A stretch of DNA of 64,000 bases, taken from assembly GCA_031382385.1 (NCBI GenBank), contig JANMYS010000037.1, positions 20,567-84,566 of the forward strand. The letters run 5' to 3'. Of the stretch, positions 11,896-34,714 are shown in pieces. How positions within the stretch are numbered: position 1 is the stretch's first letter; each line of letters opens with the position of its first letter. The DNA comes from Gemmatimonadota bacterium. GTDB taxonomy: Bacteria > Gemmatimonadota > Gemmatimonadetes > Gemmatimonadales > GWC2-71-9. A program made the translations under genes and the position numbers. Under the pieces are notes generated by a model. It saw only the letters and a program-made list of their open reading frames with translations, ran no database searches and was not told where the DNA came from.

Positions 11896-11927
11896 CACAC
11901 CACCGGTTCACGGCGGATGATCTTTTG

Positions 11928-15978: not shown

Positions 15979-16010
15979 AGCGCCCCGGCAGTGCTGCCGG
16001 GGCGCTTTGT
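15979..16010 (+). terminator. Intrinsic terminator-like hairpin
   Basis: 12-bp stem AGCGCCCCGGCA/TGCCGGGGCGCT followed by TTGT. Confidence 0.7.
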
Positions 16011-16016: not shown

Positions 16017-16043
16017 GGGAACCGGGGACAGGCTGCGGGCGTT
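16017..16043 (+). promoter_or_regulatory. ECF promoter P1
   Basis: GGGAACC-N16-CGTT, 40 nt upstream of small ORF 16084. Confidence 0.75.
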
Positions 16044-16083
16044 TCCTCCGCAGCCCCTGAGATTCTCGTGACCGGAGCCGACG

Positions 16084-16236
16084 ATGGTTCGCTCACCTTT
16101 CGCGCGCCGCCTGATTCGCACCGCGATCCCGCTGCGCTACAAGGTCCAGCGTGCCAGAGTCCTTGCGATCCTGGCGCGGTGGTCCAGCTCGGTGGACGGT
16201 GGCCTGCATACCGGCCCGGCCCCGCAGTTCCCATAG
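16084..16236 (+). CDS. Unannotated 50-aa basic small protein
   Basis: GGAG RBS, ATG 16084, MVRSPFARRLIRTAIPLRYKVQRARVLAILARWSSSVDGGLHTGPAPQFP; follows P1. Confidence 0.5.
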   Translation: MVRSPFARRLIRTAIPLRYKVQRARVLAILARWSSSVDGGLHTGPAPQFP

Positions 16237-16305
16237 CGCCCGAGCATCGGCGGGACCCCAGGGCTCGCAAGCACCTCGGGGAGGCGGCCCGAAGGCCAGC
16301 CAGGT

Positions 16306-16332
16306 GGGAACCTCGGCGGGGGCTCGGACGTT
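16306..16332 (+). promoter_or_regulatory. ECF promoter P2 (putative autoregulatory)
   Basis: GGGAACC-N16-CGTT upstream of the sigma gene. Confidence 0.78.
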
Positions 16333-16461
16333 GACAGTTCGAGGGCGTCGGCGCGCCCGGTAGGGATTGCCGAGTGCGGTCCTCCGGGTGCACCCTTCCG
16401 TGCAACGGCGCGACCGTCTCTTCCAGCACCCCCGAACCCGGACTGGTCCGATGGAGGATTC

Positions 16462-17160
16462 GTGATACTGCTGCATCTGGCCGGAACCCACATGGCGACG
16501 GCCTCAGGCCACCTCGGCATCTCTCTGGCCCTTGTGGCGGGAGTCGTCGGTACCCAGCCGGCCAAGTCTCGTTCGGACGCGGGAAGTTATGAGGCGCTGC
16601 TGGTGGCTCTGCTCGACAGCGCCTACAGGACGGCACTGCATCTCACCCGCAATGCAGCCGATGCCGAGGATCTGGTTCAGGATGCCGCGCTGCTGGCTTC
16701 GCGCGGCTTCGCATCATACGAGCAGGGCAGCAACTTCAAGGCGTGGTTCTTCCGGATTCTCACCAATGCGTTCTACAGCAAGTACCGGAAAAGGAAGCGG
16801 GAAGGAGTGCAGATGGAGCTGCAGGATACGCCCGAGCTCTACCTCTATTGCCAGACTGCGGCCGCGGGACTGCATGCGGAAAGCGAGAATCCCGCCGCGC
16901 TCGTCATGGACCAGCTGGACGGAGAGCTGATCGGGACGGCGATTGATGCCCTCCCGGACGACTACCGGGTGGTCGCAACGCTCTACTTCATTCAGGACTT
17001 CTCGTATCAGGAGATCGCCGAAGTACTCGAGATCCCGGTGGGGACGGTCCGGTCTCGGCTGCACCGGGGTCGACGGATACTGCAGCGGGCATTGTGGCAG
17101 CTGGCGCAGGATCGCGGCATTGTCGACGAACTCACGCAGGCCAGGGGAGGTGACGCATGA
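16462..17160 (+). CDS. ECF sigma-70 factor (SigR/SigH-like)
   Basis: DAEDLVQD, NFKAWFFRILTN, FSYQEIAEVLEIPVGTVRSRLHRGR; GGAGG RBS. Confidence 0.95.
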   Translation: MILLHLAGTHMATASGHLGISLALVAGVVGTQPAKSRSDAGSYEALLVALLDSAYRTALHLTRNAADAEDLVQDAALLASRGFASYEQGSNFKAWFFRILTNAFYSKYRKRKREGVQMELQDTPELYLYCQTAAAGLHAESENPAALVMDQLDGELIGTAIDALPDDYRVVATLYFIQDFSYQEIAEVLEIPVGTVRSRLHRGRRILQRALWQLAQDRGIVDELTQARGGDA

Positions 17161-17420
17161 GCGCCATGGGCCCGACGCGGCTGACCTGCGAGGAGGTGTT
17201 CGGACGGTTGGATGACTTTATTGACCACGAACTCACGGTGGAAGAGTTGCGGCTGGTCGAGGAACACCTGCGCACCTGTGCCGCCTGCGCCAGCGAGCAC
17301 CGGTTCGAGTCCCGGGTCATCTCGGACATTCGCTCGAAGCTCTCCCGCATCGCAGCGCCTCCCTCCCTGCGGGAGGATCTGCTGAAGCGACTGGCCGAGG
17401 AACGCGGAGGCCCGGGCTAG
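17157..17420 (+). CDS. Soluble zinc-binding anti-sigma factor (ZAS, RsrA/RshA-like)
   Basis: C...LDDFIDHEL...HLRTCAAC (HxxxCxxC); ATGA overlap with sigma; no TM helix. Confidence 0.92.
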   Translation: MSAMGPTRLTCEEVFGRLDDFIDHELTVEELRLVEEHLRTCAACASEHRFESRVISDIRSKLSRIAAPPSLREDLLKRLAEERGGPG

Positions 17421-18238
17421 GGCCGCGAGGGAACGGGAAGCGCCAGGCGGTCGATGAGCCCGGGGCTGACGCCGACCCCTTCCAGGAATTTCACCGGCAG
17501 CGCGGGAACGGCTGTCAGGGTCTCCATGTCGATGGCGGAACGGTCGGCGTGATTCACCTCCGTGAGGCCCCGAGCGGCGGCCAGTGTGGGACAGGCCGCG
17601 AAGACGGTCCGGCCAATGGTCGCATCCGTGAAATCGGCGCCGGAGAGTTGAGTGGCATGCAGCAGGCCCCAGGAAAGATCTGCATGCCGCAGCTTCGCCC
17701 CGGTCAGATCGGTGCCCGTGAGGCTGGCGTTGGCCAGCATGGCACCGGTGAAATCGGCGCCGGCCAGGGCGCTGTGGTTGAGCGTCGCCTCGGTGAGGTC
17801 GGTGCCGGTGAACCGGGCCAGGGGCAGGGAGGTGTGGGCCAGTGAGGCGCGTTCCATGGTCGCGCCGCTGAAGTCCGGTGCCCGGCCGAGCGAGTAGGCG
17901 AGCTTGGCGGTAATGCGGGTCAGGTCGGCGTCCCGCAGCCAGGTCCCGGTGAGATTGACGCCGAGCATGCGGGCGTCCGTCAGGTTGGCCCCGTCCAGCA
18001 CTGCGTCGGTCAGGTCCGCGCCACTCAGGTCCGCACCGTTCAGGTTCGCCCCCCGCAGGTTCGCGCCGCGCAGGTGTGTCGAGCAGAGATCGGCCCCTCG
18101 CAGATCGGCTCCGCTCAAGTCCATCCCCGCCAGATCGCCGTAGAGCAGCACGACTCCTGGGAGCACCGCACCGGCCAGGGAATTCCCCCCGGTCTCGAAC
18201 AGCACGTCACCCGTCTCACGATGCCGAATCTGTCCCAT
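17417..18238 (-). CDS. Pentapeptide-repeat protein
   Basis: Long run of A(D/N)Lxx repeats (ADLRG ADLCS, ANLRG ANLNG ADLSG). Confidence 0.92.
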   Translation of the reverse strand: MGQIRHRETGDVLFETGGNSLAGAVLPGVVLLYGDLAGMDLSGADLRGADLCSTHLRGANLRGANLNGADLSGADLTDAVLDGANLTDARMLGVNLTGTWLRDADLTRITAKLAYSLGRAPDFSGATMERASLAHTSLPLARFTGTDLTEATLNHSALAGADFTGAMLANASLTGTDLTGAKLRHADLSWGLLHATQLSGADFTDATIGRTVFAACPTLAAARGLTEVNHADRSAIDMETLTAVPALPVKFLEGVGVSPGLIDRLALPVPSRP

Positions 18239-18288
18239 GGTTCTCCCCGCCGGTTGTCGAAGTTTCTAACATATCCCGGAATTCACTG

Positions 18289-18315
18289 GGGAACCATCCC
18301 GCACGCCGGTGAGTT
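18289..18315 (+). promoter_or_regulatory. ECF promoter P3
   Basis: GGGAACC-N16-AGTT upstream of the ZAS-like ORF and glucosidase. Confidence 0.72.
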
Positions 18316-18415
18316 ATGGCGTGGAGGCCCGGGGGGCCTCAAGGCGGACCGCGCAGGTTCCCTGCGCCGGGGCGATCGAGTCCCGGCTGAATCACGACCG
18401 AGGCAGGGACAGCGA

Positions 18416-18697
18416 ATGGACCATGCAAGACCGAGCAAATGCACCGCAGGGCGTTGCGGCATGACAGGGCGGGACGATTCTGACACCAGCGGACGTCAGC
18501 AGTGGGACGCACAGAGGGAGCTCGACGACTGTGCGGCATGCGCTCGGGCAGCGCGCCTCGAGCAGACCCTCTGGCGGGTAGTGCGGGCGCGCATGCGCGA
18601 AGTGCGAACTCCCGAAGCGTTCGTCACTCGCCTCCGCCTCATGATCGCTGCCGAACAGGCCATCACACACGACTGGCTCGTGGGAGAGAACTCATGA
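18416..18697 (+). CDS. Degenerate anti-sigma (ZAS-like) paralog
   Basis: ELDDCAACARAARLE...RMREVRTPEAF aligns with HLRTCAACASEHRFE...KLSRIAAPPSL of 17157; ATGA overlap with the next gene; start may be 18461. Confidence 0.65.
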   Translation: MDHARPSKCTAGRCGMTGRDDSDTSGRQQWDAQRELDDCAACARAARLEQTLWRVVRARMREVRTPEAFVTRLRLMIAAEQAITHDWLVGENS

Positions 18698-21429
18698 AAC
18701 GAGATCATGCAGAAGCCGAGCGCCTCCGCGAAACGACGGCCGGCAGCGCAGCCTGGAAGCGGTGGGGGCCGTACCTCTCGGAACGGCAGTGGGGCACTGT
18801 CCGGGAGGACTACAGCGGCTCTGGCACGGCATGGGATTCATTTCCCCACGACCACGCGCGGAGTCGCGCCTACCGCTGGGGCGAGGATGGCCTCGCGGGC
18901 TTCTCGGATGCCGAGCAGCTGCTCTGCCTCGGTCTCGCCTTGTGGAATGGCCGGGATCCGATCCTCAAGGAGCGGCTCTTTGGCCTGACCAACAGCGAGG
19001 GGAACCACGGGGAGGACGTCAAGGAGCTGTACTACTTCCTCGACGCCACACCCACCCACAGCTACAACCGGATGCTCTACAAGTACCCGCAGGCGGCGTT
19101 CCCCTACGCCGATCTGCTGGAAGAGAACCGTCGCCGGGGCATTGCCGGGCTGGAGTACGAGCTGATTGACACGGGAGCTTTGGCGGAGAATCGCTACTTC
19201 GAAGTCGAGGTCGAGTACGCCAAGCGGTCGCCGGAGGCGCTCCACCTGACGCTGACCATCCACAACCGCGGACCGGCGGTGGCGACGCTGCATGTCCTGC
19301 CCCAGCTCTGGTTCCGCAACACCTGGTCGTGGACCCAAGGGGCCGTGCGTCCGATGCTCAGCCAGGGCGGGCCTGGAGTCGTTGTGGCCGAACATGAGCG
19401 GCTTGGCCGGCTGGCATGGACGGTCGAGGGCGCGGCGCCGCTGATGTTCACCGAGAATGAGACGAATGTTCGCCGACTTTACGGCGTGGACCGGCCCGGT
19501 TACTGCAAGGACGGCTTTCACGAGTTTGTCGTCGACGGCCGGACCGATGCGATCAACCCGGCGCACGTGGGCACCAAGGCCGCCGCGCACATCGTCCTTG
19601 AGATCCCGGCCGGATCGTCCCGTCAGGTGCGGGTGCAGCTCAGCCCCGAGGGTGACGCAACTACCTGGCCGGCGCATGACCAGGTGGTGGCATCCCGGCG
19701 CAAGGAGGCCGATGCCTTCTTCGCCGATCTGCAGGCGGATCTCGCCGACCCCGATGCGCGGATGGTCCAGCGTCAGGCCATCGCGGGCATGCTGTGGAGC
19801 AAGCAGTTCTTCCACTACGATCTCCCAAGCTGGCTCGACGGGGATCCCGCCCAGCCGGCACCACCGCCGGAGCGACGCCACGGCCGGAACAGCGAGTGGC
19901 GCCACCTGAACAACGCCGACATCATCTCGATGCCGGACACGTGGGAGTATCCCTGGTACGCGGCATGGGATCTCGCCTTCCACTGCATCCCGCTCGCCCT
20001 GGTCGACCCCGAGTTCGCCAAGGAGCAGCTGGTGCTGCTGACGCGCGAATGGTACATGCATCCCAACGGGCAGCTGCCGGCGTACGAATGGGCATTCGGC
20101 GACGTGAACCCGCCGGTGCATGCGTGGGCCACCTGGCGGGTCTACCAGATGGACCGCAATAGCCGGGGCGGGAAGGGCGATCTCGCCTTCCTGGAACGGG
20201 TCTTCCACAAGCTGATGCTGAACTTTACCTGGTGGGTAAACCGCAAGGATGCCCAGGGCCGGAATGTGTTCCAGGGCGGGTTTCTCGGCCTCGACAACAT
20301 CGGCGTGTTTGATCGCAGCGCTCCACTGCCGACCGGCGGTTACATCAATCAGGCGGATGGCACGGCCTGGATGGCGATGTACAGCCTCAATCTCATGCGG
20401 ATCGCGCTGGAGCTGGCCGAGCACAATCACGTCTATGAAGACATCGCCACCAAGTTCTTCGAGCACTTCCTGCATATCGCCGAGGCAATGACCAACATCG
20501 GCGACGAGGGTGTCGGGCTGTGGGACACGGAGGATGAGTTCTTCTATGATGTGCTCAACACCCCGGACAATCGGCTGATTCCGCTCCGGGTGCGGTCAAT
20601 GGTCGGACTGATCCCGCTCTTCGCCGTGGAGGTCATCGACCAGGAGCTGCTCGACAAGCTGCCCGGATTCGCCCGGCGATTGAAGTGGTTCCTGGACTAC
20701 CGTCCTGAACTGGCGGATCTCGTGTCCCGCTGGACCACGCCAGGCCAGGGAGAGCGGCGATTGCTCTCCCTGTTGCGGGGCCATCGGATGAAGCAGCTGC
20801 TGCGTCGGATGCTGGACGAAAGCGAGTTCCTGTCGGATTTCGGGATTCGCGCACTCTCCAAACACCATGAGCGCGAGCCCTACACCTTCGATGTCATGGG
20901 CTCGGAGCTCTCGGTGCGTTACCAGCCGGCGGAATCGGACTCCGGCCTGTTCGGCGGCAATTCCAACTGGCGCGGCCCGATCTGGTTCCCGGTTAACTAC
21001 CTGCTGATCGAATCGCTGCAGAAGTTCCACTACTACTACGGCGACAGCTTCCGGGTGGAATGCCCGGTCGGGTCGGGAACGATGCTGTCGCTCAGCGAGG
21101 TCGCCGACGAGCTGTCCCATCGCATGGCCCGCCTCTTTCTCCGGGGGGCTGACGGCCGACGGCCCGTGCTGGGCAATGACCCGCAGCTGCAGCAGGATCC
21201 GCACTTCCGGGATCTGGTCCTGTTCCACGAGTACTTCCACGGCGACACCGGCCGCGGGGTGGGCGCCTCGCACCAGACGGGATGGACCGGGCTGATCGCC
21301 AAGTTGCTGCAACCAAAGCGCTGCCCGATCACCGGCCACATGCTCGACCTCACCACCCGGATGCAGCAGCGTGGCGCGGTTGCGTCCGGGATACCAATCG
21401 CGGAGGGATTGGTCGTCGCGGGAACCTGA
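18694..21429 (+). CDS. MGH1-like (GH63-related) glucosidase
   Basis: [73 protein letters not shown]. Confidence 0.9.
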
Positions 21430-21446
21430 GAGGGACCCGATGCATT
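21420..21446 (+). promoter_or_regulatory. ECF promoter P4
   Basis: GGGAACC-N16-CATT spanning the glucosidase stop, upstream of the 44-aa ORF. Confidence 0.65.
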
Positions 21447-21489
21447 CTAGGCGCATGATGGATTGGCGATTCACCGGCCGGAGGGAATC

Positions 21490-21624
21490 ATGCGCGACAT
21501 CAAACCTGCTCTGGAATTCCTGTCCCTTGCGCTGGGCGATGAGGTCCCTCGCATCGCCCGGCGCGCCGCCCTCCTGACCGCGAGCCTGCTGGTCCTTGCC
21601 ACCATCGCCTGGATGGGATTGTGA
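21490..21624 (+). CDS. Unannotated 44-aa small membrane protein
   Basis: GGAGG RBS; MRDIKPALEFLSLALGDEVPRIARRAALLTASLLVLATIAWMGL; TGATG coupling to the next gene. Confidence 0.65.
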   Translation: MRDIKPALEFLSLALGDEVPRIARRAALLTASLLVLATIAWMGL

Positions 21625-23615
21625 TGCTCTCGGCCGCACCGCGGCTCGAGGCCGAGTGGCTCGAAGCGGATGGTCTCGGAGGATTTGCCTCCGGGACGGT
21701 AGGTGGCTGGCGGACCCGCCGATACCACGGCCTGCTCATTCCCGCCGTTTCGCCGCCGTCCGGGCGGGCGCTTCTCGTGGGCGGGCTCGAAGTGCATCTC
21801 GAGACACCGACGGAGCGGTTTCCGCTCAGTGCCCAGCGATTTTCGCCCGGCGTGACCGCCCCAGAGGGAACGACCTACCTCGCCTCGTTCGAGCACGAAC
21901 CGTGGCCCACCTGGATCTGGTCATTGCCGGGAGGCATCCGGGTTGCACACGAGTTGTTCCTGCCACATGGGATGCCGGCCACGGTGCTGCGCTGGCGGGT
22001 CAGCGGGGCGCCCAGGGGGACACGACTCAGCGTGCGCCCCTTCCTGGCTGGCCGCGACTCGCATGCCCTGCACTACGAGAATCCCGATTTCCGCTTCGAT
22101 GTGATCGGCGAAGGGGAGCGGCACGCCTGGCAGCCCTACGCGGCCCTCCCGGCCGTACACAGCCTGGCCAACGCCGGATATCACCACGAGCCGCACTGGT
22201 ATCGCCGCTTCCTGCTGGAAGAGGAGCGAGCCCGCGGGTTCGATCATCTCGAGGATCTCGGCACTCCCGGCGTGCTGGGTTGGGATGTCACATCGGAGGA
22301 TGCCGTCTGGGTGCTGAGCGCAGGCGGGCTGCCGGGCACGGAGGGACTCCAGGCCGGTAAGGCGCTGACGGTCGCGAACCGGCTGCGTGACCGGGAGTTG
22401 CGCCGGCGCAAGAGCTTCGCCTCGCCGCTTCACCGGGCGGCGGATGCCTACATCGTCGCGCGCGGGTCCGGCAAGACGATCATCGCCGGGTATCCCTGGT
22501 TCACCGATTGGGGGCGAGACACCTTCATCGCCCTCCGCGGTCTCTGCCTGGCGGGGGGCCGGCTCGATGACGCTCGGGACATCCTCGTCGAGTGGGCCGG
22601 CGCCGTGTCGGAAGGGATGCTGCCCAACCGTTTCGTGGAACAGGGAGACGCGCCAGAGTTCAACGCGGTCGATGCCTCCCTCTGGTATGTGATTGCCGTG
22701 CATGAGTTCCTGGAGGAGATGAAAGCCGCCAGCCGGCGCGTCGCCCCGGCGGACCGGGCGCGACTATCGGCTGCGGCGGACGCGATACTGGAGGGGTACG
22801 CCCGCGGCACCCGGTTCGGTATCCGGATGGATGATGACGGGTTGCTGAGTGCCGGCGTGGCCGGTGTGCAGCTGACCTGGATGGATGCCCGGATTGGCGA
22901 CTGGGTTGTCACACCGCGGATCGGCAAGCCGGTTGAAGTCCAGGCGCTCTGGCTGAATGCGTTGCGGATTGGCGCACAGCGCGACGACCGGTGGGCCCGC
23001 CTTCATGACCGCGCCCTCGCTTCGTTCCGCCAGCGCTTCTGGAACGAATCGGCCCGGTGCCTCCATGACGTGATCGACTGCGATCATGTCCCGGGGACAG
23101 TCGATGCTTCGATCCGGCCCAATCAGCTCTTCGCGGTCGGCGGACTCCCCTTCCCGCTGCTGGAGGGCGCACTCGCCCGGCAGATCGTGGACCGCGTCGA
23201 GGCCGACCTCTGGACGCCGCTCGGGCCCCGCAGCCTGGCGCCTGGCAGCGAGGGATATGCCCCGCATTACGTCGGGGGTCCGCGCGAGCGCGACGGTGCG
23301 TACCACCAGGGGACGGTCTGGCCGTGGGTGGCCGGGCCCTTCATCGAAGCTTGGATCCGGGTGCGTGGCGGTGGAGCCGACGCCGCCCGGGAGGCCGGAG
23401 CACGATTCTTCGCGCCGTTGCTGGAGCATCTGGAGCGAGCGGGGCTCGGGCATGTCTCCGAGATCGCCGATGCGGAGAAGCCCCACACCCCAGCCGGCTG
23501 TCCGTTCCAGGCCTGGTCGGTGGGCGAACTGCTCCGGATCGATCGCGTCCTGCGCGCCGCAGAATCCACCGACGCGCAGACCAGGCGGGCCGTCGCGGGC
23601 GGTACTACTGAATGA
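21621..23615 (+). CDS. Amylo-alpha-1,6-glucosidase (glycogen debranching, archaeal type)
   Basis: EWLEADGLGGFASGT, RTRRYHGLL, IAGYPWFTDWGRDTFI, LTWMDA, YHQGTVWPW, GCPFQAWSV; start GTG 21621 or ATG 21624. Confidence 0.92.
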   Translation: MMLSAAPRLEAEWLEADGLGGFASGTVGGWRTRRYHGLLIPAVSPPSGRALLVGGLEVHLETPTERFPLSAQRFSPGVTAPEGTTYLASFEHEPWPTWIWSLPGGIRVAHELFLPHGMPATVLRWRVSGAPRGTRLSVRPFLAGRDSHALHYENPDFRFDVIGEGERHAWQPYAALPAVHSLANAGYHHEPHWYRRFLLEEERARGFDHLEDLGTPGVLGWDVTSEDAVWVLSAGGLPGTEGLQAGKALTVANRLRDRELRRRKSFASPLHRAADAYIVARGSGKTIIAGYPWFTDWGRDTFIALRGLCLAGGRLDDARDILVEWAGAVSEGMLPNRFVEQGDAPEFNAVDASLWYVIAVHEFLEEMKAASRRVAPADRARLSAAADAILEGYARGTRFGIRMDDDGLLSAGVAGVQLTWMDARIGDWVVTPRIGKPVEVQALWLNALRIGAQRDDRWARLHDRALASFRQRFWNESARCLHDVIDCDHVPGTVDASIRPNQLFAVGGLPFPLLEGALARQIVDRVEADLWTPLGPRSLAPGSEGYAPHYVGGPRERDGAYHQGTVWPWVAGPFIEAWIRVRGGGADAAREAGARFFAPLLEHLERAGLGHVSEIADAEKPHTPAGCPFQAWSVGELLRIDRVLRAAESTDAQTRRAVAGGTTE

Positions 23616-24472
23616 CCGGTCGGTCTGTATTTGGAGAGCGCGAACTTCCCCGATGGATACAGCACCTGCCGGAGTACGCGGCGGAGGCCTTCGGTTTGGG
23701 CCTCTTCATGGTCTCGGCGTGTGGGTTCGCGTTGCTCTTCTTTCATCCGGCATCTCCGGCGCTTCAGTGGATACCGGGAGCGCTTGGCCGGAACCTGGCC
23801 ATGGGGGCGGCGATGGCAGTCACCCTGCTGGTGAATGTCTACGGCCCCTGGGGACAACGCTCCGGAGCGCATCTCAATCCCGCGGTGACGCTCACCTTCT
23901 ATCGGCTCGGCAAGGTGGCCGGTGGTGACCTCCCGGGCTATGTGGTGGCGCAGTTCCTCGGCGGCCTGGCGGGCACCGGGATCGCCGTACTCATCTTCGG
24001 GGACCTGCTGGCGGATCCTTCGGTGAACTACGTCGCGACGGTGCCGGGACCGGATGGTGTTGTGGTGGCCTTCCTCGCTGAACTGGCCATCACCTTCGTC
24101 CTGATGCTGGTCATCCTGCAGGTTGCTTCGACGGCAGCGCTTTCACGATACACCGGCGTCTTCGCCGCTGTCCTCGTGGGGCTGTACATCGCATTCGAGG
24201 CGCCCTACTCGGGCATGAGCATGAATCCCGCGCGTACGGTGGGCTCCGCCGTCTACGCCCATCTCTGGACCGGGCTCTGGCTGTATTTCGTTGCCCCGCC
24301 ACTCGGCATGCTCTCGGCGGCCGAAGTCTTCCTCCGCCTCCGCGGAACCGGGGCCAGACTCTGTGCCAAGCTGTATCACTCCAGTCGGGTGCGCTGCATT
24401 TTCTGCGGGCAGGAGCCGGAAGCGCAGCCGGCCTCCGTTCTCCGGGAACCACTACGCCACGTCAGGCATTAG
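23612..24472 (+). CDS. MIP/aquaporin family channel
   Basis: SGAHLNPAVT and MSMNPAR (two NPA motifs), six TM helices, Cys-rich tail. Confidence 0.93.
   Translation: MTGRSVFGERELPRWIQHLPEYAAEAFGLGLFMVSACGFALLFFHPASPALQWIPGALGRNLAMGAAMAVTLLVNVYGPWGQRSGAHLNPAVTLTFYRLGKVAGGDLPGYVVAQFLGGLAGTGIAVLIFGDLLADPSVNYVATVPGPDGVVVAFLAELAITFVLMLVILQVASTAALSRYTGVFAAVLVGLYIAFEAPYSGMSMNPARTVGSAVYAHLWTGLWLYFVAPPLGMLSAAEVFLRLRGTGARLCAKLYHSSRVRCIFCGQEPEAQPASVLREPLRHVRH
24444..24470 (+). promoter_or_regulatory. ECF promoter P5
   Basis: GGGAACC-N16-CATT at the aquaporin 3' end, upstream of the DM13 gene. Confidence 0.65.
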
Positions 24473-24532
24473 AGCCCCTGAGCGGGCCACACACGGTGGC
24501 CCGCAGGACGCACTGACTCGGGAGGCAGGACA

Positions 24533-24922
24533 ATGCGCGGAATGACGAAGGCTCTGACGATGCTGGTGGCGCTGGTCGCGGTGACCACGGCGGCGGCGGC
24601 GCCGGTGAAGACCTTCATCAGCAAGCCGTTTGCTGGTGTGAAGGCCAACACCGGCACGGTGACGGCGACGGTCGATGGTGGCAAGATCACCCTGAAGGTC
24701 TCGGATGACTTTGTCATCCCCGATACCCCGGCTCCCAGCTGGCAGATCGTGGACTCCAAGGGCAACACCTACCTGCTCAACCAGATGCGGATCAAAGGCG
24801 ACAAGACCAACCGCATGATCACCCTGCCGAGCTACATCAAGGACATCGCTAAGGTGCAGGTGTGGTGTTCGTTCGCCGAAGTGGTGCTGGGCGAGACCAG
24901 CTTCGATACCATCGTCAAGTAA
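24533..24922 (+). CDS. Secreted DM13-like protein
   Basis: Signal peptide; VQVWCSFAEVVLGETSF resembles the DM13 WC motif; strong codon bias. Confidence 0.7.
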   Translation: MRGMTKALTMLVALVAVTTAAAAPVKTFISKPFAGVKANTGTVTATVDGGKITLKVSDDFVIPDTPAPSWQIVDSKGNTYLLNQMRIKGDKTNRMITLPSYIKDIAKVQVWCSFAEVVLGETSFDTIVK

Positions 24923-24989
24923 CTGACGTCTACTGTACCGCCGGTCGGGCGTTCCCGGCCGGCGGTCGTGTTTCCGGGAGGGAACGACA

Positions 24990-25862
24990 ATGCGACAGTT
25001 CACACTGCTGGGCCTTGGCCTGGCGCTGGGCGGGATCGTCTCGCCAGCCTCCGCCCAGGTGGCGGAACACAAGAGTCTCACGATCGAGGGCGCCAGGAAC
25101 GTGATCGCGGCGGCCGTCACCTACGCGCGGACCAAGGCCGGAACCGGCGTGATCGCCGTCGTCGACGATGGCGGCAACCTGATGGCGCTCGAACGGCTCG
25201 ATGGCACCTTCGCCGCCGGGGCGAACATCTCGATCGGCAAGGCACGCACCGCCGCACTGTTCAAGAAGCCGACCCGGTTCTTCGAGGAGCTGATCAACAA
25301 GGGTCGGACCGCCATGACGGCGGTGAACGACTTCACCCCGCTGATCGGCGGCGTGCCGATCCTGGTCGACGGCCAGATCGTCGGGGCCATCGGCGTGAGT
25401 GGCGCGGCTTCGGCTGCTGAAGATGAGGAAGTGGCAATGGCCGGGGCGGCCGGGGTCGGAACCCAGGTCTCGATGGCCGGGCCGGTCCATACGATGAGCG
25501 TCAACTATTTCACGCGCGACCAGGTCAACGCCGCGTTCGCCAAGGGCAGCGTCCTGGTCGACGGGACCGGGCGCAACTACATGGTGCATGCCAGCCGTCG
25601 CGACAAGGCGGGCCAGGCCGAAGTGCATGTGCTCGACACCGACGTCATCTACGTGCAGGAGGGCGCCGCCACCTTCGTGACCGGCGGCATGGTCATGGGC
25701 GGGAAGACGATCGAGCCGAACGAAGTTCGCGGCGATTCTATCAGCGGCGGCGAGACCCGCCGGATTGTGAAGGGCGACGTCATCACCGTGCCGAACGGTA
25801 CACCACACTGGTTCCAGGACGTGAAGGGCACGCTGACGTACTACGTCGTCAAGGTCCGGTAG
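24990..25862 (+). CDS. Secreted GlcG/HbpS heme-binding domain fused to a cupin
   Basis: IAVVDDGGNL..LERLDG, KARTA, GGVPI..GAIGVSG; cupin EVH...D and VPNGTPHWF. Confidence 0.85.
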   Translation: MRQFTLLGLGLALGGIVSPASAQVAEHKSLTIEGARNVIAAAVTYARTKAGTGVIAVVDDGGNLMALERLDGTFAAGANISIGKARTAALFKKPTRFFEELINKGRTAMTAVNDFTPLIGGVPILVDGQIVGAIGVSGAASAAEDEEVAMAGAAGVGTQVSMAGPVHTMSVNYFTRDQVNAAFAKGSVLVDGTGRNYMVHASRRDKAGQAEVHVLDTDVIYVQEGAATFVTGGMVMGGKTIEPNEVRGDSISGGETRRIVKGDVITVPNGTPHWFQDVKGTLTYYVVKVR

Positions 25863-25868
25863 GGCACC

Positions 25869-27509
25869 ATGCGACGGGTACTCCTCACCCTCGCGGCCGT
25901 CACGGCGCTCGGCTCCTCCGGGATCCGGGCGCAGGTGACTGGTGACGCCCCATACGGCAAGCCGGCAGCAATCATCAACCTCGGTACCAGCAGCGGGGCA
26001 GGGCTGGTGCGGGGCCAGTGGCGTTACAGTGACGCGCAGTTCACCGAGGTCGAGCACCATGCTCCCGGCCGGGACCTGCGCCCCTCTGGCCCACCCAACC
26101 GGACCCACGACATCTCCCCCCATGCCGGCACAGCGGACTTCGATGATTCCGCCTGGAGCACCTTTCCGGCCGAATCGATCGAGGCACGTCGCGGCAACGG
26201 CAAGTTCAGCTTCAACTGGTACCGGATCAATCTCACGATTCCGGCCCGGGTGGGGAAGCACGATCCGACCGGCATGACCGTCGTCTTCGAGCTCGTCGTG
26301 GATGATTACGCCGAGGTCTGGGTCAACGGAAAGCTGCCAGTCACGCTCGGTCAGACCGGCGGGCAGTTGGTCAAGGGCTTCAACGCGCCGAATCGCGTGG
26401 TTCTCACCCGGGATGCGCGGCCGGGCCAGCAGTTCCAGCTGGCCATCTTCGGCATGAATGCCCCGGTCTCCAACCCGCCGGTGAATTTCATCTGGATCCG
26501 TTCCGCGACGCTGGATTTCTATACCGCGGCGCAGGCGCGGGTGGGGCATGACGTCGAGGTCAAGTTCACCCGGCACGACCCCGCATTCGACGCGCTTGTG
26601 TCACCCGGGGCCGGGGTCGAGAAACTGGCCGGCGGGTTCGAGTTCCTCGAGGGGCCGGTCTGGGTCCGCGAGGGTGGCTACTTGCTCTTCAGCGATCCGA
26701 ACACGAACACCATCTATCGCTGGTCGCCGGACGGTCAGGTGAGCGTCTATCGGACCAAGAGCGGCTACGCCGGGCTCGATATCGGCGACTACCATCAGCC
26801 AGGTTCGAATGGGCTGGCACTCGACTCCGCCGGTCGGGTGGTGATCGATCAGCACGGCAATCGTCGGGTCATCCGGGTCGAACGGACGGGCGCGGTGACG
26901 GTGCTCGCCGATCGCTACGAGGGCAAGCGCCTCAACAGCCCCAACGATCTGGTGTTCCGGTCCGATGGCAGCCTCTACGTCACCGATCCGCCCTTCGGAC
27001 TGCCCGGCGTCTTCGCAGACCCGGCGAAGGAAACGCCGTGGAGCGGCGTCTACCGGATTCACGACGGACAGGTGACCCTGCTGACGAAGGAACTCAGCGG
27101 CCCGAACGGGATCGCGTTCTCCCCCGATGAGAAGACGCTCTACGTCGATAACTGGGATCCGAAGCGCAAGGTGATCATGCGCTACGATGTGAACGCCGAC
27201 GGCACGATCGCCAACGGCCGGGTCTTCTTCGACATCACGCAGTCAGTCCCCGGGGATGATGCCTGGGACGGCATCAAGGTGGATCGTGACGGAAACGTCT
27301 ACGCCGCCGGGCCTGCGGGGATTTACGTCCTCTCGCCGGCCGGCAGACTGCTCGGCACGATCACGCTGCCGGAGCATGTGGCGAATTTTGCCTGGGGTGA
27401 TGGCGATCTGCAGACGCTCTACATCACCGCCTCCACCGGTCTGTACCGGCTGCGCATGAACCTCCCCGGCGCCGTGGCGTTCGGCTCGACCCAGGCGGCC
27501 ACCCGATGA
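25869..27509 (+). CDS. Secreted SMP-30/gluconolactonase with N-terminal sugar-binding-like domain
   Basis: Signal peptide; NWYR and VDDYAEVWVNG jelly-roll; EGPVW, GSNGL, NSPNDL and DGIKVD motifs. Confidence 0.88.
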   Translation: MRRVLLTLAAVTALGSSGIRAQVTGDAPYGKPAAIINLGTSSGAGLVRGQWRYSDAQFTEVEHHAPGRDLRPSGPPNRTHDISPHAGTADFDDSAWSTFPAESIEARRGNGKFSFNWYRINLTIPARVGKHDPTGMTVVFELVVDDYAEVWVNGKLPVTLGQTGGQLVKGFNAPNRVVLTRDARPGQQFQLAIFGMNAPVSNPPVNFIWIRSATLDFYTAAQARVGHDVEVKFTRHDPAFDALVSPGAGVEKLAGGFEFLEGPVWVREGGYLLFSDPNTNTIYRWSPDGQVSVYRTKSGYAGLDIGDYHQPGSNGLALDSAGRVVIDQHGNRRVIRVERTGAVTVLADRYEGKRLNSPNDLVFRSDGSLYVTDPPFGLPGVFADPAKETPWSGVYRIHDGQVTLLTKELSGPNGIAFSPDEKTLYVDNWDPKRKVIMRYDVNADGTIANGRVFFDITQSVPGDDAWDGIKVDRDGNVYAAGPAGIYVLSPAGRLLGTITLPEHVANFAWGDGDLQTLYITASTGLYRLRMNLPGAVAFGSTQAATR

Positions 27510-28210
27510 GCCCCCGCCACAGGAATGCGCTGCGGTGGGTGCTCCCCGGCGCGCTGGTCGTCCTCGGCGCGGCCCGTCCCGCCGGGGCGCAGGACCCGGT
27601 GCCGCTCTACCCCGGCAACTACAAGGTCATGATCGAGAATGATCGGGTCCGGGTCATGGACTTCCAGCTTCGGCGTGGCGCGCGCGAGGAGATGCACATG
27701 CATCCCGCTCATGTGCTCTACGTCCTGACCGGCTTCCGGATCCGCTTCACCTTTCCCGATGGCACCACGAAGATCCGGGAGACCATGGCGGGCGAGGTAC
27801 TGTACAGCGATGCCGTGATGCACTCGCCCGAGAATATCGGTGATACCGATGCCCACGGCATCCTGGTCGAGCTCAAGCCTCAGGTGACCGGCAGGGGTGC
27901 GGAGATCGACGCAGCCTCATCCCCGCTCACGGCGTTCACCTTCGTCCACGGACTGGCCGGCCAGGGCGACCCCCTGCAATTTCACCTGCTCTCCCTCACC
28001 GCCCCAACGCGCGCCGAGGACGGGGCAATCCGGTACGACCTCTACCGCTCCGTCGAGCGGCCCGACGACTTCCTCCGCCACGAGGTATGGCGCGACAGGG
28101 CGGCACTTGAGGCGCACAAGCAGACTCCTCCGCTTCGTGCCTCCTTTGCCCGGCGCCAGCGGGAGGGGTGGACCACGGCCATCACCCTGTGGCTCCCGGT
28201 GCAGCCATGA
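27506..28210 (+). CDS. Secreted cupin fused to an ABM (antibiotic biosynthesis monooxygenase) domain
   Basis: ENDRVRV, MHMHP, HSPENIG; TRAEDGAIRYDLYR...EVWRDRAALEAH. Confidence 0.8.
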   Translation: MSPRHRNALRWVLPGALVVLGAARPAGAQDPVPLYPGNYKVMIENDRVRVMDFQLRRGAREEMHMHPAHVLYVLTGFRIRFTFPDGTTKIRETMAGEVLYSDAVMHSPENIGDTDAHGILVELKPQVTGRGAEIDAASSPLTAFTFVHGLAGQGDPLQFHLLSLTAPTRAEDGAIRYDLYRSVERPDDFLRHEVWRDRAALEAHKQTPPLRASFARRQREGWTTAITLWLPVQP

Positions 28211-29229
28211 GCCCCGGCCGCCACTATCTGCGGGTTGCTGTGCTCCTGCTCGGGTGCATCACGCCAGCGACGGCTCAGGGCCCCGGTACCCCCTCTGTCG
28301 AGGGGAGGATCACCCGACTGGACCCCCGCTTCGACCGGCTGATCCCCGCCGGAGCCACGCTGGAACTGGTGGTCGATGGGCATGAGTGGGCCGAGGGCCC
28401 GCTGTGGGACCGGAAGGCGGGCTGCCTGCTCTTCTCCGACGTCATTCGCAATACCGCCTACCGGTGGTGTGAGGGCGCCGGAGAGAGCGTCCTGCTCGCC
28501 CACAGCGGCTACACCGGCAGGGAACCGTTCAAGGGCAGGGAACCTGGCTCCAACGGACTCGCCTTCGACCGCGATGGAAGCCTGCTCATGGCGGAACATG
28601 GCGATCGGAGGATCAGCCGACTGGGTGCGGATGGACGGAAGACCACGCTGGTCGACCGATTTGACGGGAAGCGCATCAACAGCCCCAATGACCTGATCGT
28701 GACAGCCGCCGGTGACCTGCTGTTCACCGATCCGCCCTGGGGCTTGCCGCAGTGGTGGGCTGATCCCGGGAAGGAGCTGCCGTTCAGTGGGGTCTATCGC
28801 CTGTCCGCGGCGGGCCGGCTGACCGTCCTCAGCCGTGATTTCCAGGCGCCGAACGGTATCGCCGTGTCGCCCGACGGCCGCACCCTGATCGTGAGCGAGT
28901 CAAAGCCGGAGATCGGCGCGTGGTACGCGTTCACCGTGAATGCCGACGGCTCCCTGACCGGCAAGCGCAGGCTGCTCGACGCGGTGCCCTGGTCCGTGGG
29001 ACGCATGGGGGTACCGGATGGGCTCAAGCTCGATCGGGAGAGTCACATCTTCGGCGGCGGGCCCGGTGGCGTCTATGTGATCGACCCCGACGGCACTCTG
29101 CTCGGTATCATCGAGACCGGGGGGCCGGCCTCCAACACAGTCTGGGGTGGGGACGGCTCGATGCTCTACATCACCTCCGGTGCCCGGATCTTCCGTTTGC
29201 AGACCACTACCCACGGGGCTGGTTGGTAG
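28207..29229 (+). CDS. Secreted SMP-30/gluconolactonase
   Basis: WAEGPLW, LFSD, GSNGL, NSPNDL, TDPPWG and PDGLKLD motifs. Confidence 0.9.
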   Translation: MSPGRHYLRVAVLLLGCITPATAQGPGTPSVEGRITRLDPRFDRLIPAGATLELVVDGHEWAEGPLWDRKAGCLLFSDVIRNTAYRWCEGAGESVLLAHSGYTGREPFKGREPGSNGLAFDRDGSLLMAEHGDRRISRLGADGRKTTLVDRFDGKRINSPNDLIVTAAGDLLFTDPPWGLPQWWADPGKELPFSGVYRLSAAGRLTVLSRDFQAPNGIAVSPDGRTLIVSESKPEIGAWYAFTVNADGSLTGKRRLLDAVPWSVGRMGVPDGLKLDRESHIFGGGPGGVYVIDPDGTLLGIIETGGPASNTVWGGDGSMLYITSGARIFRLQTTTHGAGW

Positions 29230-29236
29230 CTCCTCC

Positions 29237-29262
29237 GGGAACCTCTGCCGGTGCACGGCGTT
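29237..29262 (+). promoter_or_regulatory. ECF promoter P6
   Basis: GGGAACC-N15-CGTT in the gap before the 62-aa ORF and GMC gene. Confidence 0.7.
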
Positions 29263-29284
29263 GAGAGGGCAACAGGAGATACCC

Positions 29285-29473
29285 ATGTCAGCCTCGTTCA
29301 CGCAGCCCGACACACTGCTCGATCACCCCGCTCTTGCGGGCCATACCGTCTTCGTCCGGCGCGGCGGGGATTGGCAGCGCTTCGTCGTGCGCCAGGCCGG
29401 TGGCCTCGTGCCCGACCACTCCCACACCACGCGTTTCGCCAGCTTCGGCTGGCGCACGCCAGCCTGGAGCTGA
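29285..29473 (+). CDS. 62-aa small protein
   Basis: AGGAG RBS; MSASFTQPDTLLDHPALAGHTVFVRRGGDWQRF...WS; ends 2 nt before the GMC start. Confidence 0.6.
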   Translation: MSASFTQPDTLLDHPALAGHTVFVRRGGDWQRFVVRQAGGLVPDHSHTTRFASFGWRTPAWS

Positions 29474-29475
29474 CC

Positions 29476-31014
29476 GTGCCGCACTACGACGTCATCATCA
29501 TCGGTTCGGGCGCGGGCGGCGGTACCCTCGCCTGGAAGCTGGCAGCGAGCGGCAAGCGCATCCTCCTGCTCGAGCGTGGGGAATACGTCCCGCGCGAACC
29601 GCAGAACTGGAACACGCGCGCGGTCAACGTCGAGGGTCGCTACAACACCCGGGAATCCTGGCTCGACAAGGCCGGCAAGCCGCTGCACCCCCATACCAAC
29701 TACTGGGTGGGCGGCAACACCAAGTTCTATGGCGCCGCGCTCTTCCGCCTGCGGCGGGAGGATTTCGGCGAGCTGCGCCACCACGGCGGCATCTCTCCCG
29801 CCTGGCCGATCAGCTATGACCAACTCGAGCCCTACTACACTCAGGCCGAGCATCTCTATCAGGTGCATGGCGAGCGGGACGTGGATCCGACCGAGCCCTG
29901 GGCAAGCGCACCATACAAGTATCCCGCGGTCAGCCATGAGCCCCGCATCCAGCAGCTGAACGACGACCTCGTGGCCCGCGGGCACCGGCCCTTTCATACG
30001 CCGCTGGGTATCCAGCTCAACGAGGCCAACCGCCGGGCCAGCGCCTGCATCCGCTGCGCGACCTGCGACGGGCACCCCTGCCTGGTCAACGCGAAGTGCG
30101 ACGCGCAGACCATCTGCATCGACCCCGCGTTGGAGCAGTATCCCAACCTGGAGCTGATGACGGGAGCGTATGTCTCGCGGCTGGAGACCAGCAGTTCCGG
30201 CCGCGAAGTGGCTCGGGTGCACGTCGAACGGCACGGGACGACCGAGGTGTTCACTGCCGGCTTCGTCGTCGTGGCCGCCGGGGCGATCAACTCCGCGGCG
30301 CTGCTGTTGCGCTCCGCCAGCGACCGGCATCCCCGCGGTCTCGCGAACGGTTCGGATGTCGTCGGCCGCCACTACATGGGTCACATCAACGCCGTGCTCA
30401 TGGCCATTTCGACCACGCCGAACCCCACGGTCTTCCAGAAATCCCTCTCCCTGAACGATTTCTACTTCGGCACCAAGGACTGGGCCTTCCCGATGGGGCA
30501 TATCTCGTTTGTCGGGAAGCTGGATGCCGATACCCTGGCGGCTGGTGCGCCGCCGTTCGTTCCCGGCATGACCCTCGATGTCATGGCGAAGCATTCGCTG
30601 GACTTCTGGCTCACCTCCGAGGACCTTCCAGCGGCGGATAACCGGGTCACGCTCGACCGCGACGGCCGGATCGTGCTGAGCTATACCCCGAATAACCTCG
30701 AAGGTCATGTCCGGCTCACCGACCAGTTGCGCCGGATCATGCGCGACGTCGGCATGAGCCACGTCGTCCCGCGTCAGCTCTTCGTCGGGCAGCGGATCCC
30801 GTTGGCGGGTGTCGCCCACCAGAATGGCACCATCCGGTTCGGGACCGATCCCGCCACGTCCGCTCTCGATCCGAACTGCCGGGCCCATGAGGTCGACAAT
30901 CTCTACGTCGTCGATGGGAGCTTCTTTCCTTCCAGCGGCGCGGTCAATCCGGCCCTGACGATCATGGCCAATGCCCTTCGCGTGGGCGATCATCTGCTTG
31001 AGAGGCTGGCATGA
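29476..31014 (+). CDS. GMC family FAD oxidoreductase with Cys-rich motif
   Basis: YDVIIIGSGAGGG, LLLERG, CIRCATCDGHPC, AHQNGT, NLYVVDGSFFPS..VNPALT. Confidence 0.93.
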   Translation: MPHYDVIIIGSGAGGGTLAWKLAASGKRILLLERGEYVPREPQNWNTRAVNVEGRYNTRESWLDKAGKPLHPHTNYWVGGNTKFYGAALFRLRREDFGELRHHGGISPAWPISYDQLEPYYTQAEHLYQVHGERDVDPTEPWASAPYKYPAVSHEPRIQQLNDDLVARGHRPFHTPLGIQLNEANRRASACIRCATCDGHPCLVNAKCDAQTICIDPALEQYPNLELMTGAYVSRLETSSSGREVARVHVERHGTTEVFTAGFVVVAAGAINSAALLLRSASDRHPRGLANGSDVVGRHYMGHINAVLMAISTTPNPTVFQKSLSLNDFYFGTKDWAFPMGHISFVGKLDADTLAAGAPPFVPGMTLDVMAKHSLDFWLTSEDLPAADNRVTLDRDGRIVLSYTPNNLEGHVRLTDQLRRIMRDVGMSHVVPRQLFVGQRIPLAGVAHQNGTIRFGTDPATSALDPNCRAHEVDNLYVVDGSFFPSSGAVNPALTIMANALRVGDHLLERLA

Positions 31015-32135
31015 GGCGGCTCGCGGGTGCGGTGTGCCGGCTGCTGAACCTGGCGGTGCCGCTCAGCCACCTGCTGTACGGGGCGGTGGGGCTCGTCTTC
31101 CCTACCCCCCGGGACACCACCGCGCAGCAGTTCCCCTGTTGCGGCGGCGGCACCGCCAACGTCATCGCCGTGGTAGCCCCAGCGGAACGCATCCCGCGCT
31201 CGACACCCCATGCGCTCGCCGTCGCCCGCATCGGGCTCACGGTCAGCGACATGGAGCGCTCCCTTGCCTTCTACACCGGGACCCTGCAGTTCCGCGTGGT
31301 CGCGGATACCGAAGTCGCCGGCGCCTCGTGGGAAGTGGCGACCGGAGTCTTCGGTGTCCGGCTCCGCCGGGTCACCCTTGCACTGGGCCGGGAACGACTG
31401 GAGCTGACGGAATTCCTGGCCGCGTCACGTCCGGGCCTGGCCGCGCCGGTCGACAGCCGCAGCAACGACCGGTGGTTCCAGCATGTCGCCATCATCACCA
31501 GCGACATGGACAGTGCCTATCGGCTGCTCCGCGCCCACCGGGTCCGCTCCGCCTCGACATCACCACAGCTTCTCCCGGCATCGCTGCCCAACGCGGCGGG
31601 CATTCGCGCCTTCTACTTCCGGGACCCGGACGGTCATCCGCTCGAAGTGCTCCAGTTTCCTGCGGACAAGGGCGAGGAGCGATGGCAGGCGCGCGGCTCG
31701 CTCTTTCTGGGAATCGATCATACGGCGATTGTCGTGGCCAGCACCGAACGCAGCCTGGCGTTCTATCGTGATCAGCTTGGCATGCGGGTGGCGGGTGGCA
31801 GTGAGAACTTCGGCACGGAGCAGGAGCATCTCAACAACGTGGAAGGGGCCCACCTGCGCATCACGGCGCTGCGGGCGCCTGCGGGCCCGGGTGTGGAGTT
31901 GCTCGAATACCTGTTCCCCCGCGACGGGCGCCCCTATCCGGACACGGAACGGCCCAACGACCTGGTGCACTGGCAGACGGTCATTCGCGTCGAGGATCCG
32001 GCACGCGTGGCCGCACAGTTGGTGCGGGGCGGGGCGACGATGCTTTCGCGACTGCCGCCGGGGAACCGCCCGGTGCTCCCGGGCGTTCTGCTGCGAGACC
32101 CCGATGGGCATGTGATCGAGCTGGTGACTCCCTGA
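31011..32135 (+). CDS. Two-domain VOC/glyoxalase family protein
   Basis: VSDMERSLAFY, FQHVAI, YFRDPDGHPLE, IDHTAI, RDPDGHVIEL; start uncertain. Confidence 0.88.
   Translation: MRRLAGAVCRLLNLAVPLSHLLYGAVGLVFPTPRDTTAQQFPCCGGGTANVIAVVAPAERIPRSTPHALAVARIGLTVSDMERSLAFYTGTLQFRVVADTEVAGASWEVATGVFGVRLRRVTLALGRERLELTEFLAASRPGLAAPVDSRSNDRWFQHVAIITSDMDSAYRLLRAHRVRSASTSPQLLPASLPNAAGIRAFYFRDPDGHPLEVLQFPADKGEERWQARGSLFLGIDHTAIVVASTERSLAFYRDQLGMRVAGGSENFGTEQEHLNNVEGAHLRITALRAPAGPGVELLEYLFPRDGRPYPDTERPNDLVHWQTVIRVEDPARVAAQLVRGGATMLSRLPPGNRPVLPGVLLRDPDGHVIELVTP
32061..32087 (+). promoter_or_regulatory. ECF promoter P7
   Basis: GGGAACC-N16-CGTT within the VOC 3' end, 65 nt upstream of the GNAT gene. Confidence 0.7.
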
Positions 32136-33819: not shown

Positions 33820-33892
<73 letters not shown>

Positions 33893-34647: not shown

Positions 34648-34684
34648 GCTGACCCAGCAGCGCCAGTTGTGAGGAAGGCCAGCG

Positions 34685-34714
34685 GAGCCGGCCCCTGAGG
34701 GGTCGGCTCTTTTT
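34685..34714 (+). terminator. Intrinsic terminator
   Basis: GAGCCGGCCCC/GGGGTCGGCTC stem followed by T5. Confidence 0.85.

Follow-up and report, generated by a model that had tools for sequence, protein, structure and literature searches.

Among the closest described systems, the SigH–RshA pair of Mycobacterium and Corynebacterium and the SigR–RsrA pair of Streptomyces couple a sigma factor of the extracytoplasmic function (ECF) type, group ECF12, to a soluble, redox-sensing zinc-binding anti-sigma (ZAS) factor, and their regulons include the thioredoxin system (trxB, trxA/C). The DNA examined here comes from the Gemmatimonadota, a phylum abundant in soils and barely studied genetically. In a 64-kb stretch (henceforth the window) of contig JANMYS010000037.1 of assembly GCA_031382385.1 (4.37 Mb in 175 contigs, 67.6% G+C), a gene block of ~17 kb holds a SigH-like ECF sigma gene, the gene of a ZAS partner and seven co-oriented promoter-like sites (P1 to P7). 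We put at about three in four the probability that these are SigH/SigE-class promoters (GGAAC-N17/18-cGTT) read by the block's own sigma factor, and on the sequence evidence this is a real, conserved ECF regulon.

The likeness to SigH and SigR lies in the sigma factor itself, whose closest solved relative is SigH of M. tuberculosis, in the GGAAC/T-N17/18-GTT register of the sites and in an apparent autoregulation; the anti-sigma is short like RsrA and retains C11, H37, C41 and C44. Two of the putative promoters stand before the sigma gene, and members of ECF12s1 likewise use alternative promoters (PMC7826278). Unlike SigH and SigR, the pair scores below the NCBIfam cut-offs, the sigma factor differs at the positions of M181 and I91/N92 and seems to tolerate CATT, and the candidate targets form a cluster of sugar and oxidoreductase genes, no site being present at trxB or the thioredoxin genes. 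The phylum also differs, AS12 anti-sigmas being reported only from Actinobacteria (PMC7406223).

The SigE factor of C. glutamicum shares with the block the GGAAC-N17/18-cGTT promoter and the Arg at the position that reads -31/-30 (PMC10012870). It stands further off in the similarity of the block sigma to solved chains (78 bits, vs 134.8 for SigH), and the block partner is RsrA-like. To our knowledge, CseE, the partner of SigE, is not a ZAS protein. The arrangement of one cluster-situated ECF sigma factor with many co-oriented promoters in its own gene cluster recalls HrpL and its hrp boxes (GGAACC-N15/16-CCACNNA), which have a different -10 element; HrpL is not known to be autoregulated or to have a ZAS partner. 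On paper the block motif also resembles the EcfG promoter (GGAAC-N16/17-CGTT), and the EcfG–NepR–PhyR system of Alphaproteobacteria shares this promoter look and a 'general stress' flavour of the targets. Unlike EcfG, however, the block sigma has SigH, SigW and SigE as its closest relatives, and no NepR or PhyR gene was seen among its annotated neighbours (genes for a TPR protein, the 50-aa small50, the anti-sigma and a pentapeptide-repeat protein). Of the two comparisons made in the original prediction, the one with EcfG is inapplicable because the partner is a ZAS protein, and the one with the SigR/SigH consensus holds, the motif lying in the SigH/SigE register (GGAAC-N18-GTT).

Seven promoter-like sites and a SigH-like sigma factor

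The original prediction listed seven forward-strand sites of the form GGGAACC-N15/16-[CA][GA]TT, about 20–130 nt before start codons, one of them before the sigma gene. A pattern search of the window returned eight matches, seven on the forward strand, with every coordinate and -10 tetramer as listed (Table 1), and one on the reverse strand, inside the GH63 gene, that had not been listed. The further GGGAACC hits at 19000, 28520, 28538, 33222 and 35340 exist as well, and have no -10 match. None of 100 dinucleotide shuffles of the window reached eight matches to the composite pattern (mean 0.18, largest 2). The whole genome has 18 strict-pattern matches, eight of them in the 16-kb stretch that holds these sites. 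In the reverse-strand match the entire 26-mer, spacer included, is preserved in relatives; because a coding sequence would be preserved in this way, we regard it as probably due to coding constraint and have not counted it as a promoter. At P1 to P7 the spacers differ from site to site, so the motif is not a dispersed repeat.

Between the end of the -10 element and the first following start codon that has a ribosome-binding site, P1 to P7 leave gaps of 40, 129, 100, 43 or 174, 62, 22 and 65 nt, close to the range first predicted; several of the first genes are small open reading frames (ORFs) that had gone unlisted, as re-reading of the start codons showed for P1, P3, P4 and P6. Placing transcription starts ~7–10 nt past the -10 elements, we infer starts near 16052, 16341, 18324, 21455, 24479, 29271 and 32096. 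Sigma-70-type promoters are not above chance in the block (2 found vs 1.8 expected).

The sigma gene begins at GTG 16462 or ATG 16492, the conserved core of the protein starting at about residue 40. Pfam matches place Sigma70_r2 at residues 50–113 and Sigma70_r4_2 at 156–205, with no r3 match, the domain pattern of an ECF sigma factor, and the protein passes the general model TIGR02937 (sigma70-ECF) with 97.5 bits (cut-off 42.9). The best match in the PDB is M. tuberculosis SigH (E 3.6e-38), and other solved chains are more distant (SigW, E 2.7e-23; SigE, E ~7e-21). Among named records, the closest are metagenome bins of Gemmatimonadales/Gemmatimonadaceae (50–60% identity), and those from Myxococcota, Balneolaceae, Kribbella and others have at most 49%. 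The anti-sigma showed no hydrophobic segment on inspection. Its alignment to the RsrA chain 5frf spans the full length, with C11, H37 and C44 facing C, H and C, residues that we take to be the zinc ligands of RsrA, and the N-terminal Cys and HxxxCxxC (C11, H37, C41, C44) are identical in 19/19 full-length ortholog rows. A ZAS motif by itself is no proof of redox sensing, RsiW and ChrR being ZAS proteins with other triggers. As is usual for an ECF sigma factor, the gene of the zf-HC2 partner adjoins the sigma gene, and the motif precedes the sigma gene in the window (P2, as predicted) and in 15 of 20 relative loci.

How the sites would be read can be compared with SigH residue by residue. SigH reads GGAAYA (-34 to -29) together with G-11, T-10 and T-9, and its optimum spacer is 17 bp (PMC6411747). 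Counted in the same manner, the block sites are GGAACC-N17-GTT, with N16 at P6 and ATT in place of GTT in two of the seven. In the alignment, where the chain numbering runs +2 relative to PMC6411747, the SigH contacts S182, R183, H185, R186, R188, R84 and I85 are retained. Arg takes the place of M181, the residue that sets specificity at -31/-30, and Tyr/Ser that of I91/N92, which read -11. The helix GT(V/I)RSR(L/I)HRGR occurs in all 21 sigma rows, and the recognition residues are constant across the orthologs. In C. glutamicum, Met at the M181 position goes with GGAAT and Arg, as in SigE, with GGAAC and cGTT; since the promoters listed there include GGAACC-N16-CGTT and AGTT variants (PMC10012870), the motif belongs to a well-described promoter class.

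Conservation of the sites and candidate members outside the block

Orthologs of the sigma factor were found in 18 of 24 genomes of the same genus (62–75% identity) and in two genomes of another family (54–55%), and 20 relative loci around them were compared, with genes called by a simple GC3-based script. The relatives are kin, so that counts overstate independence, and many of the assemblies are fragmented and incomplete. Gene order is preserved across the loci, and the proteins are only 33–90% identical. A junction was scored as carrying a site when a position weight matrix (PWM) match of at least 15 lay within 400 nt upstream of the gene (names as in Table 1). In the relatives this was the case before the sigma gene, measured to the sigma core, in 15/20, GH63 in 13/13, small129 in 9/10, GMC in 8/8, GNAT in 5/6 and GDE in 2/12. 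By the same measure none of 69 control junctions had a site: anti-sigma 0/19, MIP 0/10, HbpS 0/9, SGL1 0/9, ABM 0/4, SGL2 0/4, VOC 0/6 and ADH 0/8. These controls are the independent part of the evidence.

Before small129 and GMC conservation is reduced to a footprint, in which nothing persists but the end of the preceding gene (MIP before small129), GGGAAC(C), GCATT/GCGTT, the ribosome-binding site and the start codon ATG, and the spacers are free. The small129 site has CATT in every relative that possesses it, and the GMC site has a 15-nt spacer in 8/8. The distal site lies directly upstream of small50 in all five relative loci that hold this ORF (5/5). In three named Gemmatimonadales records (sigma 54–56% identical), GH63-GDE-MIP is relocated across the sigma gene and faces away from it; a site, mostly with CATT, is still found before GH63, and before the sigma gene in 2/3.

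In six of the 24 same-genus genomes the search for a sigma ortholog with 62% identity or more came up empty; four genomes without the sigma gene (73–93% complete) are also without small129, and in a fifth the block is on a contig that ends inside GH63. This patchiness agrees with the original term 'accessory block'; the base composition does not, being 0.64–0.68 G+C against 0.676 for the genome and hence not deviant. One relative has two copies of the module; in the copy at locus L044 (G006 contig C6), ~4 kb and a paralogous sigma gene (44% identical) are inserted between the anti-sigma and pentapeptide genes.

The PWM, which also served for a genome-wide scan, was built from 53 sites of relatives only, with those of the window excluded. 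None of the seven window sites scores below 19.4, and all rank in the top 13 matches of the 4.37-Mb genome. At scores of at least 19, 21 and 23 the genome has 15, 9 and 5 matches, against means of 3.4, 1.0 and 0.5 in eight third-order Markov genomes (maximum 6 at a score of at least 19). The excess of 15 over 3.4 leads one to expect about four further true sites outside the block, and four candidates were checked there across 26 genomes of the genus. A site before the gene of an S8 peptidase with an AMPK1_CBM glycogen-binding module is preserved in 6/6 ortholog loci. A short-chain dehydrogenase/reductase (SDR) gene on contig C34, outside the block in this genome, carries its own site; orthologs (63–70% identical) in at least 7 of 11 relatives lie inside the block between GH63 and GDE and lack a site of their own. 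The SDR gene that left the block seems to have taken the promoter along. A high-scoring site before an 844-aa gene (contig C139) was set aside as probably chance or species-specific, being kept in 1/25 homolog loci. Because the S8 peptidase and SDR genes elsewhere carry the motif, the predicted regulon is not confined to the block, as the original description 'self-contained' would have it; it is centred on the block, as far as motif and conservation tell, and extends beyond it.

Further genomic sites occur at C61:33173 and C23:7886. A weaker one (score 16.4, GGGAACT-N16-GGTT) precedes a second SDR gene (G000 C84:149383-150751), and a thioredoxin gene lies ~190 nt past that gene.

Objections and rival readings

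Several observations weigh against a SigH-like sigma factor reading all seven sites. The best NCBIfam model for the sigma factor, SigH_actino (TIGR02947), gives 145.8 bits, below its cut-off of 251.55, and the best one for the anti-sigma, RsrA (TIGR03988), 45.9 bits, below 62.5; profile classification thus yields an ECF sigma factor with SigH_actino as its best model, and by the NCBIfam cut-offs the pair falls outside ECF12/AS12. Two of the seven -10 elements are CATT, and SigH activity is lost when G-11 is altered (PMC6411747). This objection is countered by the Tyr/Ser at the -11 readers and by CATT being the conserved form before small129 and in the rearranged relatives; the altered readers may explain the tolerance. 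P4 (21420), preserved before GDE in just the two relatives mentioned, is the weakest-supported of the seven sites. Since the motif of the original prediction underlies both PWM and search pattern, scoring the relatives is in part a circular exercise. The genome's single trxB and its two thioredoxin genes (over model cut-offs) have no site above 12 within 400 nt, the closest to any thioredoxin gene being the 16.4 site ~1 kb upstream, and a thiol-stress reading is therefore without its usual hallmark. In all, the idea that the sigma factor and its ZAS partner drive the block through internal promoters is strongly supported by conserved junctions, by sites that follow rearranged genes and by the SigH-like sigma factor and register, and fares worst at P4.

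A last objection comes from the fourth candidate, the gene of a Mo-oxidoreductase (MsrP/YedY-like, Oxidored_molyb; L187-L209, G000 C7:36241), upstream of which GGGAACC-N16-CGTA/CGTT is found in 20/25 loci; ~12 of these sites have CGTA as the -10 element, and two of the genomes (G011, G020) have no detected block sigma. These related sites are probably readable by another sigma factor, and the motif may mark genes controlled by a different ECF that shares this -35. They favour a reading in which the block sites are true ECF promoters, but read mainly or also by a sigma factor of the same class, with the block sigma as one of several inputs. We judge this improbable. A 50%-identical paralog (G000 C84) does share the -35 recognition helix GTVRSRLHRGR, and SigH and SigE regulons overlap on GGAAC/cGTT promoters in C. 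glutamicum (PMC10012870). However, the sigma-2 -10 loop of the paralog differs (CLSDYR vs FYSKYR), and in most of 14 aligned loci its upstream region has a sigma-54-type TGGCAC-N5-CTGCTT and no GGGAAC..CGTT, whereas the gene of the block sigma is itself preceded by the motif in 15 of 20 loci, and block, sites and block sigma are present or absent together. The paralog (G000 C84:86600-87599, L136; L211-L223) looks like an ECF sigma under sigma-54/enhancer control: repeated TCCCAA/TTGGGA boxes lie ~100–200 nt upstream of the sigma-54-type element in most of the 14 loci, and its neighbour is a facing Ser/Thr kinase gene with beta-propeller repeats.

That the bipartite motif is bound by a transcription factor, or is a DNA element of another kind instead of a promoter specified by a sigma factor, is very unlikely, given the fixed 15/16-nt spacing, the single orientation towards a downstream gene within 22–129 nt of a start codon, the exact SigH/SigE -35/-10 register (PMC6411747, PMC10012870), the presence of the motif before the sigma gene as well and the lack of above-chance sigma-70-type promoters in the block. 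Chance, a by-product of G+C-rich coding or a dispersed repeat is hardly credible: GGGAACC by itself is unenriched (16 window matches vs 11.6 expected, 15 of 100 shuffles reaching 16), the strict pattern outside the block is near background (10 vs ~12, the shuffle mean scaled to the genome), the reverse-strand match is explained by coding constraint and the C139 site is kept in 1/25 loci, but shuffled and Markov sequences fall far short of the observed counts, the spacers vary and the sites are junction-specific. We accordingly keep to SigH/SigE-class promoters read by the block sigma.

Block genes, small ORFs and a possible function

The block runs from a terminator-like hairpin to a tRNA-Gly gene (Table 1). 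Upstream of it (11925-15952) the genes encode a PALP enzyme, a LarC-like nickel-insertion protein and, as left neighbour in several relatives too, a TPR protein; downstream of the tRNA gene (34267-35319) a cytochrome c gene is followed by one with a type IV pilin-like N-methylation motif.

Table 1. Features of the block, with coordinates in the window
Feature	Coordinates	Strand	Evidence or remark
Terminator-like hairpin after TPR gene, left edge	15990..16006	+	sequence
P1, distal site, GGGAACC-N16-CGTT	16017..16043	+	pattern match; PWM score 21.7
small50, 50-aa ORF behind P1, motif TAIP.RY..QR.RVL.IL.RW	16084..16236	+	kept in L032, L033, L034, L037, L039
P2, autoregulatory site (putative) before sigma gene, CGTT	16306..16332	+	pattern match
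ECF sigma factor, SigH-like	16462..17160	+	Pfam Sigma70_r2, Sigma70_r4_2
Anti-sigma, 87 aa, ZAS, RsrA-like	17157..17420	+	Pfam zf-HC2; overlaps sigma stop codon
Pentapeptide-repeat protein, syntenic, without own site	17417..18238	-	Pfam
P3, -10 element AGTT	18289..18315	+	pattern match; PWM score 19.7
s93, 93-aa degenerate anti-sigma paralog behind P3	18416..18697	+	BLASTP vs anti-sigma, E 9e-5
GH63 / MGH1-like glycoside hydrolase	18694..21429	+	start ATG 18694 overlaps s93 stop
Antisense match inside GH63	20965..20990	-	pattern match; absent from original list
P4, CATT, overlaps GH63 stop	21420..21446	+	pattern match; PWM score 19.4
44-aa ORF behind P4, overlaps GDE start	21490..21624	+	strong ribosome-binding site, hydrophobic C-terminus
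GDE, glycogen-debranching-type enzyme (GDE_N + GDE_C)	21621..23615	+	profile matches
MIP-family channel (aquaporin or glycerol facilitator)	23612..24472	+	Pfam
P5, -10 element GCATT, within end of MIP gene	24444..24470	+	pattern match
small129	24533..24922	+	best-conserved protein of block, 71-90% identity
HbpS/GlcG-like + cupin domains	24990..25862	+	Pfam
SGL1, SGL (gluconolactonase-like) beta-propeller, N-terminal part without known family	25869..27509	+	Pfam
ABM monooxygenase-domain protein	27506..28210	+	Pfam
SGL2, second SGL-family protein	28207..29229	+	likely start ATG 28207; hydrophobic, signal-peptide-like N-terminus on inspection
P6, CGTT, N15 spacer	29237..29262	+	pattern match
small62, 58-65-aa ORF directly behind P6	29285..29473	+	kept in 8/8 relatives having GMC
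GMC-family FAD oxidoreductase	29476..31014	+	start GTG 29476
Tandem glyoxalase/VOC-domain protein	31011..32135	+	Pfam
P7, CGTT, within end of VOC gene	32061..32087	+	top PWM score of genome, 25.6
GNAT acetyltransferase	32153..32605	+	Pfam
ADH, Zn-dependent, glucose-dehydrogenase-like	32662..33768	+	start near 32602-32665
tRNA-Gly(ccc), right edge	33820..33893	+	closes the block

Pfam gave no family for small50, s93, small62, small129 or the N-terminal part of SGL1. Two other ORFs behind P1, 16151-16363 (70 aa) and 16068-16334 (88 aa), are Arg/Pro-rich and were rejected, the conserved frame being the 50-aa one. Lengthy N-terminal extensions that would start GH63 at 18502 and GMC at 29251 were likewise dismissed: homology begins later, and conserved small ORFs fill these stretches. 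In the four closest relatives GH63 and GDE stand almost end to end, and the 44-aa ORF is missing. The N-terminus of small129 has a hydrophobic stretch that is signal-peptide-like on inspection, and the resemblance of the protein to DM13 (Atlas score 0.91, rank 23) is a lead only. In the 5' leader of small129 (24471-24532) a short hairpin is predicted, five of whose six pairs show pair-preserving two-sided changes among the window and nine relatives. Between small50 and the sigma gene of three relatives (L032, L033, L037) there are short ORFs, MR(I/V)L... GGL..., that seem to resemble a glycogen-synthase-type glycosyltransferase at its N-terminus, apparently what is left of a gene that the window has lost at this position.

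The truncated anti-sigma paralog s93 retains a CxxC and the C-terminal helices and is without the His of HxxxCxxC. An ORF occupies the same position in ten relatives. One copy (L034) is a full ZAS protein; of the remaining counterparts only the C-terminal stretch ..R.RL..V.AP..LR.RI..(M/L)LA.E is left, so that in most species of the genus they consist of the last helices, with no cysteines. In several relatives the s93 counterpart has its own upstream site and GH63 a second one. A complex prediction for the sigma factor (residues 40–232, 20-row alignment) with s93 (11 rows) scored 0.70, against 0.01 for the best control; 58 of 80 solved complexes attain that mark, as do 2 of 110 mismatched pairs. 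At least 74% of contacts are shared between runs, with a partner pLDDT of 60 or more. Residues 41–84 of s93 contact sigma-2 and sigma-4 in the model, a predicted pose between these two domains like that of a class I anti-sigma. The model thus predicts that s93 binds the sigma factor; because ECF/anti-sigma complexes have already been solved, the score shows likeness to them rather than proof of binding.

From all this we can outline how the block might work. The 87-aa zinc-finger anti-sigma would keep the adjacent sigma factor inactive; on its release the sigma factor would feed back positively by transcribing, from P1 and P2, the operon that encodes it, and would also transcribe the further units s93-GH63-GDE-MIP, small129-HbpS-SGL-ABM-SGL, small62-GMC-VOC and GNAT-ADH, with a possible separate start before GDE. 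The S8 peptidase with its glycogen-binding module and the SDR would be unlinked members. The trigger may be thiol oxidation of the anti-sigma, by analogy with RsrA, although we hold this possibility at somewhat less than even odds. More doubtful still is a role that the complex model invites: if made only while the sigma factor is active, s93 would serve as a 'mini anti-sigma', inducible and blind to the signal, by which the response is reset, or would tune it as a decoy. With small50 it would form a new feedback layer on a SigH-like switch governing a lineage-specific programme in Gemmatimonadales that mobilises glycogen or solutes and oxidises sugars.

The gene content suggests a physiology of stress-induced use of glucan or carbohydrate reserves or of compatible solutes, together with sugar and carbonyl oxidoreduction. 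This reading follows from targets that comprise glucan/solute hydrolases, a water/glycerol channel, lactonases, GMC, dehydrogenases, glyoxalase-fold proteins and a glycogen-binding protease, and also from the glycogen-synthase-like remnants near small50 in some relatives. The Gemmatimonadota are noted for life in dry soils.

A full-text literature search turned up no paper on an ECF regulon in Gemmatimonadota. Precedents exist for this type of sigma factor, for its class of promoter, for autoregulation and for clustered targets; what is new is the lineage, a layout of five units that is conserved, and the small ORFs, whose dependence on the sigma factor is predicted. Sigma factor, anti-sigma, promoter code and most of the targets can be read from the sequence, which would offer an orthogonal sigma/promoter set. 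The part that specialists might find new is the small ORFs, above all the truncated anti-sigma paralog. For the biology of the lineage, the regulon would link a redox-type switch to genes that encode an aquaporin-type channel, oxidoreductases of sugars and carbonyls, and enzymes that break down glucans or solutes.

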